The notes beneath the pieces are model-generated. The model searched no databases. It had not been told where the DNA came from and was given only the letters and a program-made list of their open reading frames with translations. The position numbers and the translations under genes were made by a program. From a virus (taxonomy: Duplodnaviria > Caudoviricetes): a stretch of 42,708 nucleotides of DNA. The stretch spans positions 1 to 42,708 of the IMG/VR virus record IMGVR_UViG_3300008255_000037; one strand, given 5' to 3'. Positions 479 to 33,793 of the stretch are shown piece by piece; within the stretch, counting starts at the first letter, position 1; each line of letters starts with the position of its first letter.

Positions 479-889
479 CTATAGTAGCTGTATTAATAGC
501 TGTAAATTTATGTCTTTTTGCTCAGGGTAATCAATACATACAATATCTTTAAAAGCCTCAGCCGCCATGACCCCATATAAATGCTCCTCCTCGGAAGTGG
601 AATTTAAAAGAGTTAAAATATTGGTTAATGTCCCTTTTATCTTATCTCCGTTTAAATAACTTTCTGGGTAAGAAAATATAATATACACAATACAATCCTC
701 TACCCATTTTTCCAGTATATTTTTATCTACTACAGTAGATATTAACCAAAGCTTATTTTCATAAGCTATGTTGGGCAATAATAGACTTTCTGCAAGCGTC
801 CCATTAAATGTTGGGTGATATTTAACAAAGTTTTTATATCCCTCCTCACAAGCCTTTAAGGATTCTAATACTTTAGCACTTATATTCAT
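479..889 (-). CDS. Diverged Imm5-like/'AC..G...F' family hypothetical protein
   Basis: Start moved to ATG 889 (GGAG RBS at 897-900); LKACEEGYKNF...ENKLWL...WVEDC pattern and a C-terminal EQKDINLQLLIQLL that resembles the cassette ends. Confidence 0.6.
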   Translation of the reverse strand: MNISAKVLESLKACEEGYKNFVKYHPTFNGTLAESLLLPNIAYENKLWLISTVVDKNILEKWVEDCIVYIIFSYPESYLNGDKIKGTLTNILTLLNSTSEEEHLYGVMAAEAFKDIVCIDYPEQKDINLQLLIQLL

Positions 890-2012: not shown

Positions 2013-2317
2013 ATATTTTGCCTCCATGCCCCTTTTATATGGCTATTTTCCCATAGTAGATAGTGGTCACAAAAAACACATGTTTCATTATCCTCTGATC
2101 GGGTTTTTCTAGGCATTCCGCACCCGTTCTTTACTGAATTACTTACTTTTAAACCATTTAAAAGATAGGAACCTGCACAGTTACAATAAGATTCTTTTCT
2201 AGAAAAGCTTTTTTCATCAGGTAAAAACCCATTATAAATGTGAAGTATTTCTAAATTATCTTCAAAAGATGAGTGTATTTCTTTATAATATTCCATTTGT
2301 ACCTCCATTATACTCAT
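2009..2317 (-). CDS. Cys-rich (CxC...CxxCxH) hypothetical protein
   Basis: YCNC and CVFCDH motifs; ATGA-coupled to the last cassette. Confidence 0.6.
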   Translation of the reverse strand: MSIMEVQMEYYKEIHSSFEDNLEILHIYNGFLPDEKSFSRKESYCNCAGSYLLNGLKVSNSVKNGCGMPRKTRSEDNETCVFCDHYLLWENSHIKGAWRQNI

Positions 2318-2619
2318 AATATTGCCTTAATCATCTCTACTTGTCTCTGTTTTTCTTCTAACTCTGCTGCTGAGTCTGCTGCTAAAAATACTGACCATAT
2401 TGCTGAATATGCTGCTTCCTCCGCTGAATATACTGCTGAATTTGCTGCTGAATATGCTGCTGAATATGCTGCTGAAATTGCTGCTACTCTTGCTGAGTTT
2501 GCTGCTGACCAGTATGATGATAGTGCTGAATCCATTACTGACCGTGTTGGATTTGCTAATGAATATACTGCCGACCATACCTCTTTTCCGGCTTTATCTA
2601 GTTCTTCATCTATGTTCAT
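2314..2619 (-). CDS. xSAA-repeat cassette protein E (101 aa)
   Basis: MNIDEEL start, SAA repeats, EEKQRQVEMIK end; AAGGA RBS, ATGA coupling. Confidence 0.8.
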   Translation of the reverse strand: MNIDEELDKAGKEVWSAVYSLANPTRSVMDSALSSYWSAANSARVAAISAAYSAAYSAANSAVYSAEEAAYSAIWSVFLAADSAAELEEKQRQVEMIKAIL

Positions 2620-2870
2620 AATATATCCTTAACCATCTCTACTTGTCTCTGCTTTTCTTCTAATCCTGATGACTTTTCTACATATCTAGCTGACTCTGCT
2701 GCTGACCATACTACTGACCTTGTTGCTGATCGTGCTGATGAATCTGTTGCTGAAAATGCTGCTGACCATGCTGCTGAATCTGCTGCTGAATATGGGGCTA
2801 ACCCTGTTGCTGACCTTGCTGCTGAATATGCCTCTTTTCTAGCTTTATCTAGTTCTTCATCTATATTCAT
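2616..2870 (-). CDS. xSAA-repeat cassette protein D (84 aa)
   Basis: Same conserved ends; ATGA coupling on both sides. Confidence 0.8.
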   Translation of the reverse strand: MNIDEELDKARKEAYSAARSATGLAPYSAADSAAWSAAFSATDSSARSATRSVVWSAAESARYVEKSSGLEEKQRQVEMVKDIL

Positions 2871-3082
2871 AGTATATCCTTAATCATCTCTACTTGTCTT
2901 TGTTTTTCTTCTAACTCTGCTGCTGAACTTGCTGCTGAAAATACTGACCATATTGCTGAATATGCTGCTGAACATGCTGCTGACCTTGCTGCTAAACATG
3001 CTGACCGTGCTGCTGAATATGCTGACCTTGCTGCTGCTCTTGCCTCTTCTATAGCTTTCTTTAGTTCTTCATCTATATTCAT
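2867..3082 (-). CDS. xSAA-repeat cassette protein C (71 aa)
   Basis: AGGAGG RBS then ATG at 3082; same reading frame as 3158..3733. Confidence 0.8.
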   Translation of the reverse strand: MNIDEELKKAIEEARAAARSAYSAARSACLAARSAACSAAYSAIWSVFSAASSAAELEEKQRQVEMIKDIL

Positions 3083-3147
3083 AATATTGCCTCCTAATTT
3101 CACAGCAACCCTATTTTTGTTACTATAACCCGTTTCAAAAATCAGTT
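3062..3147. repeat. 86-bp exact direct repeat (copy 1; copy 2 at 4162..4247) forming the leader/RBS of each cassette block
   Basis: Base-by-base identity, offset 1100 bp. Confidence 0.95.
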
Positions 3148-3157
3148 TTATAGATAA

Positions 3158-3733
3158 TTATAGTACTCCTAATTTTATCTTTTCTTCAATCCACCTTTCT
3201 TTAGTCTCAATGGCATTTCTAACTCTATTATCGTTAGGGTACTCTTTTTCATAGTTATGTAAACAACTATAGGCAAACTTGACAGACAATTGATGCAACT
3301 TCCTGGCACTGATAAACTCTTCTCTTAAGAATAAATCCAGTGTATCTACACTAATAAGTTCTTTAACGGTGCCTAAATATTTAATACAATCTTTTCCAAA
3401 TAATTTTAAACATTCACTAGGATATGCTTTTAAAGCGTCTAATGTTAACTTTTTATTTAACTCCTCAATAGTATACTCAGAAGAAATATCTAAGTTAAGC
3501 ATCTTTGCAAAGTCTTTAATACCGTATTTACAAAACCCCAGGGATCTAGCTTGTTCAAAATTAATAGTGGTATTGGTATATTGACCACTTTTATTCTTTT
3601 TCTCAATCTCTTTTTCTGCAAACTTAATTGCCTTTTGTTTCCCCCGCCTCCTATACTCTTCTCTTGAGAAATGATACTCTCCATTTTCAGTTTTAATTAG
3701 TACATTTTCTTTGCTTTTAATTACTTCAGTCAT
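3158..3733 (-). CDS. Imm5-like family protein lacking its Ala-rich C-terminal repeat
   Basis: LGFCKYGIKDF motif and LHNYEKEYPNDNRVRNAIETKERWI motif (E..YP.D.R.R.AI), then a stop. Confidence 0.7.
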   Translation of the reverse strand: MTEVIKSKENVLIKTENGEYHFSREEYRRRGKQKAIKFAEKEIEKKNKSGQYTNTTINFEQARSLGFCKYGIKDFAKMLNLDISSEYTIEELNKKLTLDALKAYPSECLKLFGKDCIKYLGTVKELISVDTLDLFLREEFISARKLHQLSVKFAYSCLHNYEKEYPNDNRVRNAIETKERWIEEKIKLGVL

Positions 3734-3820
3734 AAAATCTCCATTGTTAGTTATTGTCCTAATTCATACTACTACATAAACTTGTATAGTTAAAAAACAT
3801 TTGTTAAGTTTATAGTAAAT

Positions 3821-3958
3821 TCATAGTATATCCTTAATCATTTCTACTTGCTTCTGTCTTTCTTCTAAGCTTGCTGACCTTGCTGCTGACCTTGCTGCTG
3901 ACCTTGCTGCTGAATATGCCTCTTTTCTAGCTTTATCTAGTTCTTCATCTATATTCAT
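3821..3958 (-). CDS. xSAA-repeat cassette protein B (45 aa; absent from the ORF track)
   Basis: Translates MNIDEELDKARKEAYSAARSAARSAARSASLEERQKQVEMIKDIL; ATGA-coupled to cassette A. Confidence 0.8.
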   Translation of the reverse strand: MNIDEELDKARKEAYSAARSAARSAARSASLEERQKQVEMIKDIL

Positions 3959-4182
3959 AGTATATCCTTAATCATCTCTACTTGTCTTTGTTTTTCTTCT
4001 GTTCTCGTTGCTGAATCTGCTGAATTTGCTGCTGAATTTGCTGCTGAATATGCTGCTGAATTTGCTGCTGACCAGTATGATGATAGTGCTGAATCCATTA
4101 CTGACCGTGTTGGATTTGCTAATGAATATACTGCCGACCATACCTCTTTTCCGGCTTTATCTAGTTCTTCATCTATATTCAT
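3955..4182 (-). CDS. xSAA-repeat cassette protein A (75 aa)
   Basis: AGGAGG RBS, ATG at 4182; 4061..4176 is identical to 2498..2613 in cassette E. Confidence 0.8.
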   Translation of the reverse strand: MNIDEELDKAGKEVWSAVYSLANPTRSVMDSALSSYWSAANSAAYSAANSAANSADSATRTEEKQRQVEMIKDIL

Positions 4183-4247
4183 AATATTGCCTCCTAATTT
4201 CACAGCAACCCTATTTTTGTTACTATAACCCGTTTCAAAAATCAGTT
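4162..4247. repeat. 86-bp exact direct repeat (copy 2)
   Basis: Identical to 3062..3147. Confidence 0.95.
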
Positions 4248-4510
4248 CTTCTGGGTAAATAATCTCTTTCACTCACCATAAAATCACTTGTTATTTTCTT
4301 TATGGCATCATCGCTTAAGCCGTCCTGTCTTAATAGCTCTGCAAACGTAAGTAATTTAGCTCTGCATTCATCTCTTTTTGTTTTTTCCATAAAATAATCT
4401 CCCTCAGCTGCATTAAAATAACTCATTATAGCCAGTTGCTTTCTAAACGCAGCTACCAACTCTGCTTGTTTTACCATAACCATGCTATCTAAGTCTCTTT
4501 GAAATTCCAT
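4235..4510 (-). CDS. Hypothetical protein
   Basis: Start reassigned to MEFQRDLD (AGGA RBS upstream). Confidence 0.6.
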   Translation of the reverse strand: MEFQRDLDSMVMVKQAELVAAFRKQLAIMSYFNAAEGDYFMEKTKRDECRAKLLTFAELLRQDGLSDDAIKKITSDFMVSERDYLPRRTDF

Positions 4511-4512
4511 TT

Positions 4513-4599
4513 TTACCATCCTGTTGAGGTTAATATATATAATATAAGTACTACACCCGCCCATATCATCAGTTGCTTTATAAAAAAATCGTCTCTCAT
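4513..4599 (-). CDS. 28-aa single-TM microprotein
   Basis: MRDDFFIKQLMIWAGVVLILYILTSTGW; ATGA-coupled, fills the gap exactly. Confidence 0.5.
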   Translation of the reverse strand: MRDDFFIKQLMIWAGVVLILYILTSTGW

Positions 4600-4778
4600 A
4601 GGAGACCTTCTTGAGTCCAGAAATATTGACCTGTGTCTTCATCGTATGTTATATAATCTTCATTTATTAATTCTTGAATATCGTGGTCTGTTACACCAAA
4701 GCTCTGGACCACATCATCTCCGAATGTTATAACGGTACAATTACAGAAAAAATGCTCGCCATTTTTAGTTAATTTCAA
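4596..4778 (-). CDS. Acidic hypothetical protein
   Basis: AGGAGG RBS then TTG at 4778. Confidence 0.55.
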   Translation of the reverse strand: MKLTKNGEHFFCNCTVITFGDDVVQSFGVTDHDIQELINEDYITYDEDTGQYFWTQEGLL

Positions 4779-5921: not shown

Positions 5922-6590
5922 TAACTTTATTACCCCCAACTTTATTAAAATATAAACACACCTAATCTAATGTAGTTCAACTTAATTATAATCTGGTTAC
6001 TAACTATATTTAAAACTTAATTATAAACATGTTTATAACATAGTTATGCACAACATATTTACTCATAATAAAACCATAAATAGATCAATAAATAAGTCAA
6101 TAATAAAGCCATAAATAAGCCATAAACAAACCAATAATGGACACCAACCCTTTCAACCACATCTATTATAAACCTATTAAGCCAGACAGCATTATAATCT
6201 GGTTATAGCTACACCCCCCCTGGATATTGACCCCCCCATCAAGGATATAATTACTGGATAAAGGGGGCACACCCTAGACATATACCACCCCCCAAAATAG
6301 TTTAAGACCTTGATATAACAGGGTTTTAACCACTCTCCCCCTAACAAATTTTAAGGGAAAAAGTACTAATATAATTGGTGACATTATGTCCTTTTCACAC
6401 CAAAATTATGCTGAGGAATGACCAATTCCGAGGCATAATTATAGGGTTTTTAAAATATTCAGTTTCTATTTAAATAGACCTAATTACAATAACCTACATT
6501 CCCCCAACTTATTTATATCTCTATTACAAATTCTATTCACATAACTAGTAATGAAAGTACTATTATGGTACTATAAATTATAGGAGGATT

Positions 6591-6944
6591 ATGAAAATAA
6601 TCATAAAAGGTATACCATATAAAGTAATATTATTTAGTAATGTTGAGTTTATAAAGGTGCATTCAGATGCATCCGTGGCAATGCATGTAGGTACCAGAGA
6701 ATTACATTTTAGAGAAGATCACATAAAGAAGAATGTTATAATACATGAAGTAACACATGCCTTTATAAACAGTTTATGTTTAGGCTCTTGTAGTAATATC
6801 TCTCTTGAAGACTTTGAAGAAATTATCTGTGAATTAATGGAAGATCATCTTATGGATATAAACCGAATTAGTAACGAAATCTTAACATACCTTAAGGATA
6901 CCAAGGCACTTAGAAATAAGAAAAGGAAGAAGGCTAAGAAATGA
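6591..6944 (+). CDS. Zinc metallopeptidase-like protein (HExxH)
   Basis: IIHEVTHA motif plus downstream E; AGGAGG RBS. Confidence 0.7.
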   Translation: MKIIIKGIPYKVILFSNVEFIKVHSDASVAMHVGTRELHFREDHIKKNVIIHEVTHAFINSLCLGSCSNISLEDFEEIICELMEDHLMDINRISNEILTYLKDTKALRNKKRKKAKK

Positions 6945-7201
6945 TTGAATCACTTGGATGGGTAGCCGGTTTATTATTTGCCTTCTGTGCACTACCTCAA
7001 GCAGCCAAGTCTATTAAGGAAGGTCACTCTAGAGGTGTTTCTATGACATTTCTCTTAATGTGGTTCATTGGGGAAATATTAAGTATATTCTATATTTATT
7101 TAAAGCATGGGATAGATCAGCCTCTTATGGCTAACTACCTATTAAACATAATGTTTATATTATGTATATTAAAATATAAATTAAAGGAGCGTACATGTTA
7201 G
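6941..7201 (+). CDS. PQ-loop / SemiSWEET-like 3-TM membrane protein
   Basis: LGWVAGLLFAFCALPQ...GVS PQ motif, three hydrophobic segments, PL..NY. Confidence 0.8.
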   Translation: MIESLGWVAGLLFAFCALPQAAKSIKEGHSRGVSMTFLLMWFIGEILSIFYIYLKHGIDQPLMANYLLNIMFILCILKYKLKERTC

Positions 7202-7404
7202 AAACAGAAGAAAAAAGAAATGACAAAGAATATTTCAAATTACCTTTACATATCAGATTTATTCTAAGAGTATCTATTATTCTAATAAAGGTAACTATAA
7301 AACCTCTTATGAAAATTGGATTTACTCCCTACTTCGCAATTTATTATTTAAGAACAGGGAAAGAAAAGATAGAAGTAGAGGAAACAGTTACATATTATAA
7401 CTAG
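7195..7404 (+). CDS. Hypothetical protein
   Basis: 69-aa ORF with AAGGAG RBS. Confidence 0.55.
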   Translation: MLETEEKRNDKEYFKLPLHIRFILRVSIILIKVTIKPLMKIGFTPYFAIYYLRTGKEKIEVEETVTYYN

Positions 7405-7412
7405 GATTAATT

Positions 7413-7910
7413 ATGGCAAATAAACAAAAACTAAGTAAAGCACAAATAGCATCTATAAAAGATATGTATATGAAATACAAATCTATATCTGAGATAGCTA
7501 AGGCGTATGGAGTTTCTCGTACAGCTATTAACTGGCATATTAACACAAACGCCTGGGCAGCAGAAAGAAAGCTAAACGAATCTGAAATACTATCTAGCTT
7601 TACAGACGCAAAGAAATCAGACTTTGTTAAGATGACTCAAAGCGCAGTTAATATTATGGCTCGTAGTTTAGAGAATCTTTCTACAAGGCATGACCCTCCT
7701 TCAATACTAGAAGCAACCAAAGCAGCAGATATATTAAAAACATTAGATAACATACTACGCCTAGATGAAGGTAAACCGACAGACATCGTAGAAAATCAAG
7801 ATAAACCTATGGATGATAAAGAACTTAAGAGAAAATTAAGCGCAGATCCATTTTCAAACATCATCGTCGAGAACGACGAGGAGGAATCAGATGATACGCT
7901 CATTAATTAA
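7413..7910 (+). CDS. terS: Terminase small subunit (putative)
   Basis: N-terminal HTH (SISEIAKAYGVSRTAINW), helical core, acidic tail; upstream of terL. Confidence 0.7.
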   Translation: MANKQKLSKAQIASIKDMYMKYKSISEIAKAYGVSRTAINWHINTNAWAAERKLNESEILSSFTDAKKSDFVKMTQSAVNIMARSLENLSTRHDPPSILEATKAADILKTLDNILRLDEGKPTDIVENQDKPMDDKELKRKLSADPFSNIIVENDEEESDDTLIN

Positions 7911-8541
7911 CATTGTTACTGCCCTATGTGCTGCACTACTTATTTTTGCACTAGCCAAACCAACAAAAGTAGATCTACCTAAAGAATGGGCTAAGCATGT
8001 AGTTCCATTTAGAGTATCTATTATGAATAATGCTAGACACGCTACTGGATTCCACCTCTCCTACCAAGGTAAGACTTTTATTGTTACCAATAGGCATGTA
8101 TGTGATTTCAATATAAAAGTATTTAAGCACAGGAATATTCAATTTGGTGATTTTATGGCTAAGATAATTGCAATAGATACTTTACACGACTTATGCCTGG
8201 TTACAAGTAATAGAAATGAAGGACTTACTTTAGCGAAGACACAATCAAAGCCTTTAGATAAAATTACTTTAATTGGATTTCCACGAGGATTAGGTAAAAC
8301 TATAAGAGAAGGCAGGGTTATGGGAGATTATCCAATATTTGCCCCTTGGTTAGATAATAGAAATGTAGAAGCTTTTCAAATATCCGCTATAGGGTATGGA
8401 GGAAACTCAGGTTCACCTATTCTTAATGAAGAGGGTAACGTAACAGGGGTTTTATTTGCTGGTCATAGATATTTTCATACAGAGGCATATATAGTACCAC
8501 TATCGTACTTAAAGGTATTCCTGGCTCTACACGCTAAGTAA
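7891..8541 (+). CDS. Trypsin-like serine protease with N-terminal signal/anchor
   Basis: Catalytic triad motifs TNRHVC, HDLC, GNSGSP; hydrophobic N-terminus. Confidence 0.9.
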   Translation: MIRSLINIVTALCAALLIFALAKPTKVDLPKEWAKHVVPFRVSIMNNARHATGFHLSYQGKTFIVTNRHVCDFNIKVFKHRNIQFGDFMAKIIAIDTLHDLCLVTSNRNEGLTLAKTQSKPLDKITLIGFPRGLGKTIREGRVMGDYPIFAPWLDNRNVEAFQISAIGYGGNSGSPILNEEGNVTGVLFAGHRYFHTEAYIVPLSYLKVFLALHAK

Positions 8542-33189: not shown

Positions 33190-33434
33190 TATTTTCTCCT
33201 TAGAATAATATACAGTAAATGTCCTGTATCTTCACAAATAACTCTTATTGTACCGGTAATTTTATTTCTACTAGACCTTATTCTTTTAATATAAGTTAAA
33301 GGATACTTACCCTCACAAGCAGACTTAATCATACCAAAAACTGTCATAGGATAGTTAGAGCATATTATAGAGGTGATATTATGCCCAAAAAAAGGTGCTA
33401 AAATGGCTTCTGTATGCTCCTCTCCAAATATCAT
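33189..33434 (-). CDS. Hypothetical protein
   Basis: 81-aa coupled ORF. Confidence 0.55.
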   Translation of the reverse strand: MIFGEEHTEAILAPFFGHNITSIICSNYPMTVFGMIKSACEGKYPLTYIKRIRSSRNKITGTIRVICEDTGHLLYIILRRK

Positions 33435-33793
33435 CTTATCCCTAACGCCTTCTTAAATCTATCGTCTAATTCAGGATAAGTGTCAATTTGATACTCTTGG
33501 GTAACCCACATAATCATAGCATTAGCAGCAATATGTAATAAATGGCTTCTACCGCTTTCAATATCGTTATCTTCACCGTTCATGAAGGAATGTATATGTC
33601 TCATAATACTATCATAAGGAACTGTATAAGGCTGTCCTTTAGCATAATTCCATCTACTGTACTTCTTAGCTGATTCAGTCATAAGATCAGCTAAAGCTAT
33701 TATAAATCCTGGCGCTATATGGTGACAACCTGGCTTATCATTATTATACCTCAATGAGCCTGTGGATAATTTCCCTTTAGCCTTATCTTCCAT
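33431..33793 (-). CDS. dATP/dGTP diphosphohydrolase (DUF5664-like)
   Basis: LRYN.DKP, AKKY..WNY.KG, DSIMRH, D.ESG..HL.H.AAN motifs. Confidence 0.85.
   Translation of the reverse strand: MEDKAKGKLSTGSLRYNNDKPGCHHIAPGFIIALADLMTESAKKYSRWNYAKGQPYTVPYDSIMRHIHSFMNGEDNDIESGRSHLLHIAANAMIMWVTQEYQIDTYPELDDRFKKALGIR

Follow-up and report, generated by a model that had tools for sequence, protein, structure and literature searches.

The window, that is, the whole stretch of 42,708 nucleotides (nt) analysed here (IMG/VR record IMGVR_UViG_3300008255_000037; Duplodnaviria, Caudoviricetes), is a complete phage genome of 42.6 kb with a 123-nt terminal overlap. On its minus strand, downstream of an AT-rich intergenic region and among small genes that are presumably early genes, lies an array consisting of one gene, here called N, and five short paralogous genes, cassettes A to E, which carry variable xSAA-repeat tracts. 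Two cassettes stand ahead of N and three behind it. An original prediction, made from the sequence alone, took N and the cassettes for the separated parts of an Imm5-like protein. The array and its direct neighbors are arranged as follows (aa, amino acids; ORF, open reading frame).

4235..4642, minus strand: upstream gene of 135 aa; a similar gene lies at the same place in the related loci L004 and L005 (by eye)
4162..4247, minus strand: leader U, first copy; 86-nt exact repeat with a contig depth of 39.4 in sequencing run X1 (flanks 20.4)
3955..4182, minus strand: cassette A, 75 aa; its first 116 nt (5′) are identical to those of E
3821..3958, minus strand: cassette B, 45 aa, with the shortest tract; ATGA overlap with A
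3158..3733, minus strand: N, 191 aa; ends at the loop between helix 2 and helix 3
3062..3147, minus strand: leader U, second copy, ahead of cassette C; 86-nt exact repeat
2867..3082, minus strand: cassette C, 71 aa; one TAA and a 75-nt gap separate it from N, whose frame it shares
2616..2870, minus strand: cassette D, 84 aa; 105 nt of the C/D junction are common to the A/B junction
2314..2619, minus strand: cassette E, 101 aa
2009..2317, minus strand: downstream Cys-rich gene of 102 aa; similar genes lie at the same place in L004, L005 and L008 (by eye)

Sequence and assembly of the array

An ORF check found N and the five cassettes on the minus strand where the original prediction had placed them, with the constant module (N, 191 aa) and the repeat module (cassettes of 45–101 aa) in separate genes. 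All five cassettes indeed begin with MNIDEEL and end with EE(K/R)Q(R/K)QVEM(I/V)K(D/A)IL, and between these ends the x of x-S-A varies as described (Y10, R8, W6, D5, N5, F2, S2, C, E, I). The term “interchangeable”, which had been applied to the cassettes, is an interpretation and not something observed. A Shine-Dalgarno-like AGGA(G) lies upstream of each cassette, and ATGA overlaps join A to B, C to D and D to E. Past cassette B, another ATGA overlap opens a four-codon ORF (MNLL; 3807–3824, minus strand) that looks like the stump of another cassette.

Codon use in the tracts is almost fixed. Within the cassettes, Ser is encoded by TCA in 53 of 57 cases and Ala by GCA in 78 of 86, compared with 44/269 and 72/230 in six large genes. 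The sequence GATGAAGAACTA occurs five times genome-wide, each time within a cassette, and the coding strand of the array has TCAGCAGCA 22 times, with one more occurrence elsewhere in the genome. The cassettes are mosaics of exact blocks: 116 nt are shared by the 5′ parts of A and E, 105 nt by the A3′–B5′ and C3′–D5′ junctions and 86 nt, leader U, precede both A and C, to which internal blocks of 33 and 32 nt are added. Copy 1 of leader U contains the end of the upstream gene, a small hairpin, a Shine-Dalgarno sequence and the first codons of A. A scan of leader U found no sense-strand promoter or terminator, and promoter-like sites in the region were at chance level (27 against 23.5). On the plus strand, a promoter-like pattern, TTCACA-N16-TACTAT, lies in both leader U copies (3099–3126 and 4199–4226), antisense to the cassettes, and just 5′ of the rightward structural operon (6536–6563); three occurrences compare with 0.37 expected, two of them being copies of one repeat and the pattern having been picked post hoc.

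Such an array might be an assembly artefact in which strain variants of one cassette were strung together. We compared contig depths in four runs (X1–X4), of which X1 possibly represents the source sample and X2 belongs to a different study. Unique pieces of the array had depths of 20.5, 21.4 and 23 in X1 (flanks 20.4) and of 9.7–16.9 in X2 (genome depth 13.1–15.7), whereas pieces lying in repeats were deeper (33–39 in X1, 22.4 in X2). One 467-nt contig of X4 carries the C-D-E junctions without differences, a second assembly (locus L003, which may derive from the same sample) is identical to the window at 7036/7036 nt, and the same layout was found again in distant phages. In favor of an artefact, none of the contigs listed covers the whole array, the gene order resting on assemblies, and one low-depth contig of X3 connects A with E over the 116-nt repeat, N being on another X3 contig. 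The X3 joint at 2497–4061 (P0038) and the chimera P0040, made of A and E, may represent pop-out products or low-depth assembly collapse, and we did not count them as proof. Since its pieces are close to genome depth in two studies, the array does not represent a mixture of strains, and we regard an artefact as extremely improbable. The phage was present in aquifer, cold-spring and groundwater sequencing runs; no RNA run was among those listed, which has no bearing on its expression.

N and the cassettes as parts of one Imm5-like chain

A profile of length 188 was built from 32 single-chain Imm5-like phage proteins. It matched N with its positions 3–106, cassettes A, C and D with 107–183/186, cassette E with 106–182 and cassette B with 145–181. 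N and the cassettes thus correspond to adjoining parts of the same single chain, 3–106 followed by 106/107–186, as had been proposed. The accompanying claim that a single polypeptide is usual in this family holds as well: 72 of 74 other viral Imm5-like loci continue past the break point, and the remaining two are a locus cut by its contig end (L109) and one that could not be scored (L066). The N protein consists of an unnamed N-terminal domain with an LGFCxYG motif, followed by Imm5-like helices 1 and 2 (residues 144–189). It matches the Pfam family Imm5_like (PF21805) with 27.6 bits, above the gathering cut-off of 25, but covers only positions 9–54 of 129, the whole domain not being present on one chain. 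No cassette matches Pfam on its own, and the fused relative P0014 reaches 47.9 bits against the same family.

The AlphaFold2 model of P0014, the closest fused relative, has a pLDDT (predicted local distance difference test) of 86. Its helices comprise residues 141–162 and 168–180, then 186–214 and 222–244, the break falling into the loop between the second and the third; the repeat tract extends helices 3 and 4, and confidence is low only at the tip (209–221). We also folded N read through into cassette C, with X at the stop. The last helix of the cassette was confident in this model (blocks of 77 and 93), which gives weak support because the chains were tethered and the prediction was guided by fused relatives. 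In both models, the top structural match is the immunity protein SsdAI (7jtu_B), covering the entire Imm5-like region, with Z 7.7, root-mean-square deviation (rmsd) 3.6 and 117 aligned residues for P0014, and Z 7.5, rmsd 4.9 and 110 aligned residues for the read-through model, where the match spans residues 121–288; sequence identity is 9–11%. Foldseek found nothing in PDB or BFVD at E ≤ 0.001, and sequence searches of PDB gave chance-level matches only. Look-alikes in the Atlas were viral Imm5-like clusters, and an Atlas search with residues 1–135 scored at most 0.82. Many different N-terminal domains are found in the Imm5-like family.

Elsewhere in the genome, a gene for 136 aa (479–889, minus strand) matches positions 4–80 of the 188 in the single-chain profile (E 6.5e-4). 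It is likely a degenerate paralogue that lacks a repeat tract.

The split arrangement in related phages

Among 37 homologues of N, obtained from 136 candidates, 19 are short and end right after a conserved W, and 16 are fused to a repeat tract. The other two are P0036, with a different repeat, and P0037, in which a DUF7666 domain precedes the same split end. That homologues of N normally end at this place had been named as a finding that would speak against a split gene. It is true of 19 of the 37, yet a cassette start follows behind N in all 11 split loci with DNA (fetched besides the window and including the near-copies L004/L005/L008 and L032/L050), which indicates a conserved split and not an N-only protein. 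A cassette also lies ahead of N in all nine split loci with upstream DNA, L008 and L037 having none; in L025 the upstream cassette is present as its 3′ part only and one gene away. By comparison, standalone cassettes were absent from the 1.5 kb upstream of all 21 fused loci. The upstream repeat ORF of the fused locus L022 is a fused paralogue, that of L018 lies near the contig start, and in fused L027 a lone cassette is found at a distance of 5.8 kb upstream.

A profile search gave 155 matches, and among the 120 listed at least 29 look standalone, with lengths of 37–131 aa, this phage contributing four. In searches of viral contigs with DNA patterns, no MNID-type cassette was detected, and one apparent match turned out to be a chance match within a tail gene. 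We also dropped L125, L126 and L128 as candidates for cassettes in genomes lacking N, the records being fragments. Record G002 opens within a cassette, and this cassette overlaps the end of the N-bearing contig. About 19 kb away, an AT-rich stretch is followed by a shortened near-copy of one array cassette, standing by itself; this lone cassette likely shares its genome with a split N.

Several loci contain other repeat genes. Two copies of another small gene border the cassette-N-cassette array of L002, and close to the array, at positions 2779–3693, is a tandem pair of pentapeptide-repeat paralogues with common ends and different repeat numbers. The fused loci L020, L021 (about 2500–3600) and L022 (1321–1947) possess a second xSAA-repeat gene with another N-terminal domain, and in L020 and L021 the tracts have sequence blocks in common.

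A phylogenetic tree was calculated from 54 rows cut before the junction, after ten duplicates had been dropped and without P0036, P0037 and partial or duplicate loci. It contained a split clade of 17 rows including the window (support 100/98), a second split clade of 8 rows (91/87) and 29 fused rows. A single clade for all 25 split rows was rejected by the approximately unbiased (AU) test (p-AU 0.0013). When the cassette ends were compared with the fused tails on either side of this tree, 19 of 20 MNID-type and all 17 NKY-type cassette ends matched best on their own side, P0057 alone deviating. According to these sequence comparisons, the fission arose twice, in separate clades and at the same loop, which marks this loop as a module boundary.

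The first domain of N is also fused to the unrelated repeat of about 24 aa in P0036, and the split end also stands behind DUF7666, an association with another N-terminal domain known from P0037 only. The first domain and the split end are mobile modules.

In the split proteins, 13 positions of the half-domain carry the same residue in all 25 rows. Ratios of nonsynonymous to synonymous substitution (dN/dS) for N were 0.09–0.17 in four unsaturated of eight whole-gene pairs, all from the second clade. Between the window and L004, the proportions of nonsynonymous (pN) and synonymous (pS) differences in N were 0.17 and 0.86, the latter saturated. Judged by these substitution patterns, the half-domain of N is under purifying selection.

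These data bear on the possibility that N and the cassettes are by now independent, N working by way of its N-terminal domain and the cassettes either on their own or as helical hairpins that form homo-oligomers. Lone cassettes (L126 far from N, L027 near a fused gene), the occurrence of the first domain of N on the unrelated repeat of P0036 and a change at position 177, from mostly Ala to Thr or Val, in both split clades would fit such independence. Against it, the core residues of the half-domain are kept in 25/25 split rows, N and cassette types co-descend and, wherever DNA is available, a split N comes coupled with a cassette. We consider independence unlikely.

The cassettes recombine and turn over between close relatives. 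Identity of cassette ends was 0.90 within genomes (17 pairs) compared with 0.70 (41 pairs) and 0.82 (25 pairs) between genomes of a clade. Over about 3.5 kb, L004 and L005 differ by three bases and one whole 251-nt cassette. L008 and L004 agree in 435/450 nt of N, yet they have different cassettes behind it, and L032 and L033 agree in 212/213 nt of the upstream gene but only in 501/582 nt (86%) of N. The comparison of cassette number and order in relatives, suggested together with the original prediction, revealed that both number and content differ between near-identical phages. In sum, that prediction was partly supported; the binding of cassettes to N, the differing specificities and the anti-defence role that it envisaged are hypothetical. 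It missed the presence of cassettes on both sides as a rule, the two origins of the split and the recombining copies.

Working model, alternatives and known systems

We next considered how the two halves may be joined. N ends in a stop codon in all split rows. The frame offset from N to the cassette is 0 in the window and three further loci, +1 in five loci and +2 in two, and the gaps range from −17 to 75 nt, with overlapping stop and start codons in some loci. Because the frame differs among relatives, the halves are likely translated separately; in several loci the tail of N (LG[E/V]L or EEYK) encodes GGAG or GAGGA ahead of the next start. It is possible that the single in-frame TAA in the window leaves some read-through leakage. 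A fused chain could still be made by stop read-through, by ribosome hopping or by a DNA deletion, which would act at the AAATTAGGAG repeat common to the end of N and leader U, the other cassettes serving as a reservoir. This would suit the single TAA between N and an in-frame cassette in the window and in L004/L005/L008. Programmed bypass or read-through of the T4 gene 60 type involves a frame relation that is conserved and structured RNA where the two parts meet, whereas here all three frame offsets occur, the junction fold is weak (no conserved structure, z −1.35) and no credible Rfam match was found at the junction. No N-cassette fusion joint is among the contigs listed from the four runs, although contigs drop rare forms. 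A fused chain is, in our judgment, very unlikely.

The explanation we prefer, to which we assign a probability of roughly one half, is a split gene whose product N and the five xSAA cassettes dock in trans, so that a variable, alanine-rich tip binds a host protein early in infection. N is predicted to provide helices 1 and 2 and each cassette helices 3 and 4, with the repeats lengthening the helix 3–4 hairpin; the cassettes likely dock on N to rebuild the four-helix bundle, and the tip probably binds the host protein. Translation of each gene would be coupled at the stop/start overlaps. Recombination between cassette ends would homogenize the docking ends and reshuffle the tips, and would likewise gain, lose or swap N and cassettes. 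Several N-cassette pairs would coexist per infection, and one genome would sample tip variants that fused relatives would sample only across strains. As to the origin, a free upstream cassette may have come first, making the loss of N's own tail harmless, and the cassette-N unit may then have been duplicated, so that N came to be followed by a cassette having its own start. Such a duplication would fit L002, where the second cassette is followed by what is left of the start of N.

Several observations weigh against this explanation. In the read-through model, the first cassette helix and the tract have low confidence (55 at residues 221–230 and below 50 at 230–271). The Z scores of 7.7 and 7.5 for SsdAI lie within the range of unrelated helical bundles, and the corresponding Foldseek E value is 6.0. 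In one protein, P0057, the start of one cassette type is joined to the end of the other type. The length range of standalone cassettes, 37–131 aa, argues against a fixed binding geometry. Finally, fused genes with identical first 540 nt differ in tract length (three pairs), and tract variability alone hence needs no selection.

Some of these points would also be expected if the cassettes were redundant parts of the same two-chain protein, kept after a fission that an existing free cassette had made harmless, and multiplied and scrambled by slippage and unequal crossover in the 12-nt repeats while their specificity stayed the same, their number being a matter of dosage or neutral drift. The almost single-codon use of the repeats, the varying tract length in fused genes, near-identical contigs differing by one cassette, cassettes as short as 37 aa and the remnant of N in L002, as if from tandem duplication, are compatible with this alternative. 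On the other hand, 19 of 19 cassettes examined are open and have start signals, and the layout with cassettes on both sides was kept in two independent clades across saturated synonymous divergence. We see redundancy as possible but less than probable. A two-chain protein, common to our preferred explanation and to redundant cassettes, is on both taken together likely; distinct specificities of the cassette tips are a more doubtful proposition.

Imm5_like proteins of Pfam family PF21805 are single chains with xSAA or xAAA tracts and have the same half-domain motif, repeat tract and terminal helix; here, the chain breaks off between helix 2 and helix 3, and its second half is encoded by an array of several gene copies. 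Imm5 is described as mostly helical, linked to DYW deaminases and CdiAC and a suggested scaffold for several toxin domains (PMC3482391, PMC3239186). SsdAI (PDB 7JTU chain B) is described as all-helical and as blocking the toxin active site with a protrusion (PMC7901873); it may itself be an Imm5 member. On the basis of the deaminase link and the active-site plug of SsdAI, we propose, as speculation, that the array proteins bind a host enzyme, possibly a conflict enzyme, much as immunity proteins of the Imm5 type block toxins with deaminase activity. SsdAI, however, is one chain, and the array lies in a phage early-region context without a toxin gene beside it: no toxin domain was found in the neighbors or among the 37 ORFs of the genome scanned against Pfam, which included part of the small ORFs.

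In polymorphic toxins, according to one study, variable C-terminal modules are coded apart from the constant N-terminal part and exchanged by recombination (PMC3482391). Those cassettes are likewise standalone variable modules, but they replace the C-terminus of a full-length gene, whereas here N lacks a C-terminus, each cassette has its own start and frames are not conserved. With these properties, variety would combine at the protein level. In T4-type phages, PeSLs are portrayed as short repeats in a non-essential early region that drive gene gain, gene loss and small circles (PMC2839356). They are non-coding cassettes with a strong sigma-70 promoter and a terminator, in contrast to the coding cassettes described here and to leader U. 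Diversity-generating retroelements use a reverse transcriptase and adenine-specific variation copied from a template repeat. No reverse transcriptase was found among the 37 scanned ORFs, and variable codons of the array differ at non-A positions, such as TGG/AGG/CGG/TGT.

A literature search, thin on subscription journals, found no paper on the Imm5-like phage family or its split. The family is already catalogued (PF21805), and what is new is that fission took place convergently, is conserved and goes along with an array of recombining cassettes. Imm5-like repeat proteins form a very large phage family without an assigned function, and the array offers a natural panel of tips of 37–131 aa on one scaffold for asking what the variable tract binds. 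If the tips differ in specificity, this would be a new way in which phages vary a host-interaction protein, needing neither reverse transcriptase nor invertase; redundant tips would still make it a clean case of repeated gene fission kept by trans-complementation. We tentatively suggest that uncultured phages twice evolved a two-chain combinatorial binder, a constant scaffold with a recombining array of small genes, each completing the fold with its own tip and together giving several specificities per infection. Equally tentative is the idea that such a binder would act on host defence or conflict enzymes, as a protein-level analogue of cassette switching.

The Pfam scan of the 37 ORFs further identified an SU10-type capsid and adaptor, a P22-like portal, a family A polymerase, a DUF3799 nuclease and a DUF669 protein. 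The latter two presumably could drive the recombination considered above. Capsid and terminase have best matches of only ~23–24% identity among cultured phages. N, P0014 and cassette D had no match among 50,697 phage records, and prokaryote genomes (one genome per species) contained nothing related to N or to the start of NKY-type cassettes. These searches revealed neither a cultured relative nor a host. The gene at 33431–33793 (minus strand) has a motif that we take to resemble those of dATP/dGTP diphosphohydrolases. Ahead of the terminase, a PQ-loop gene and a trypsin-like protease were assigned by the Pfam scan at 6941–8541 on the plus strand.

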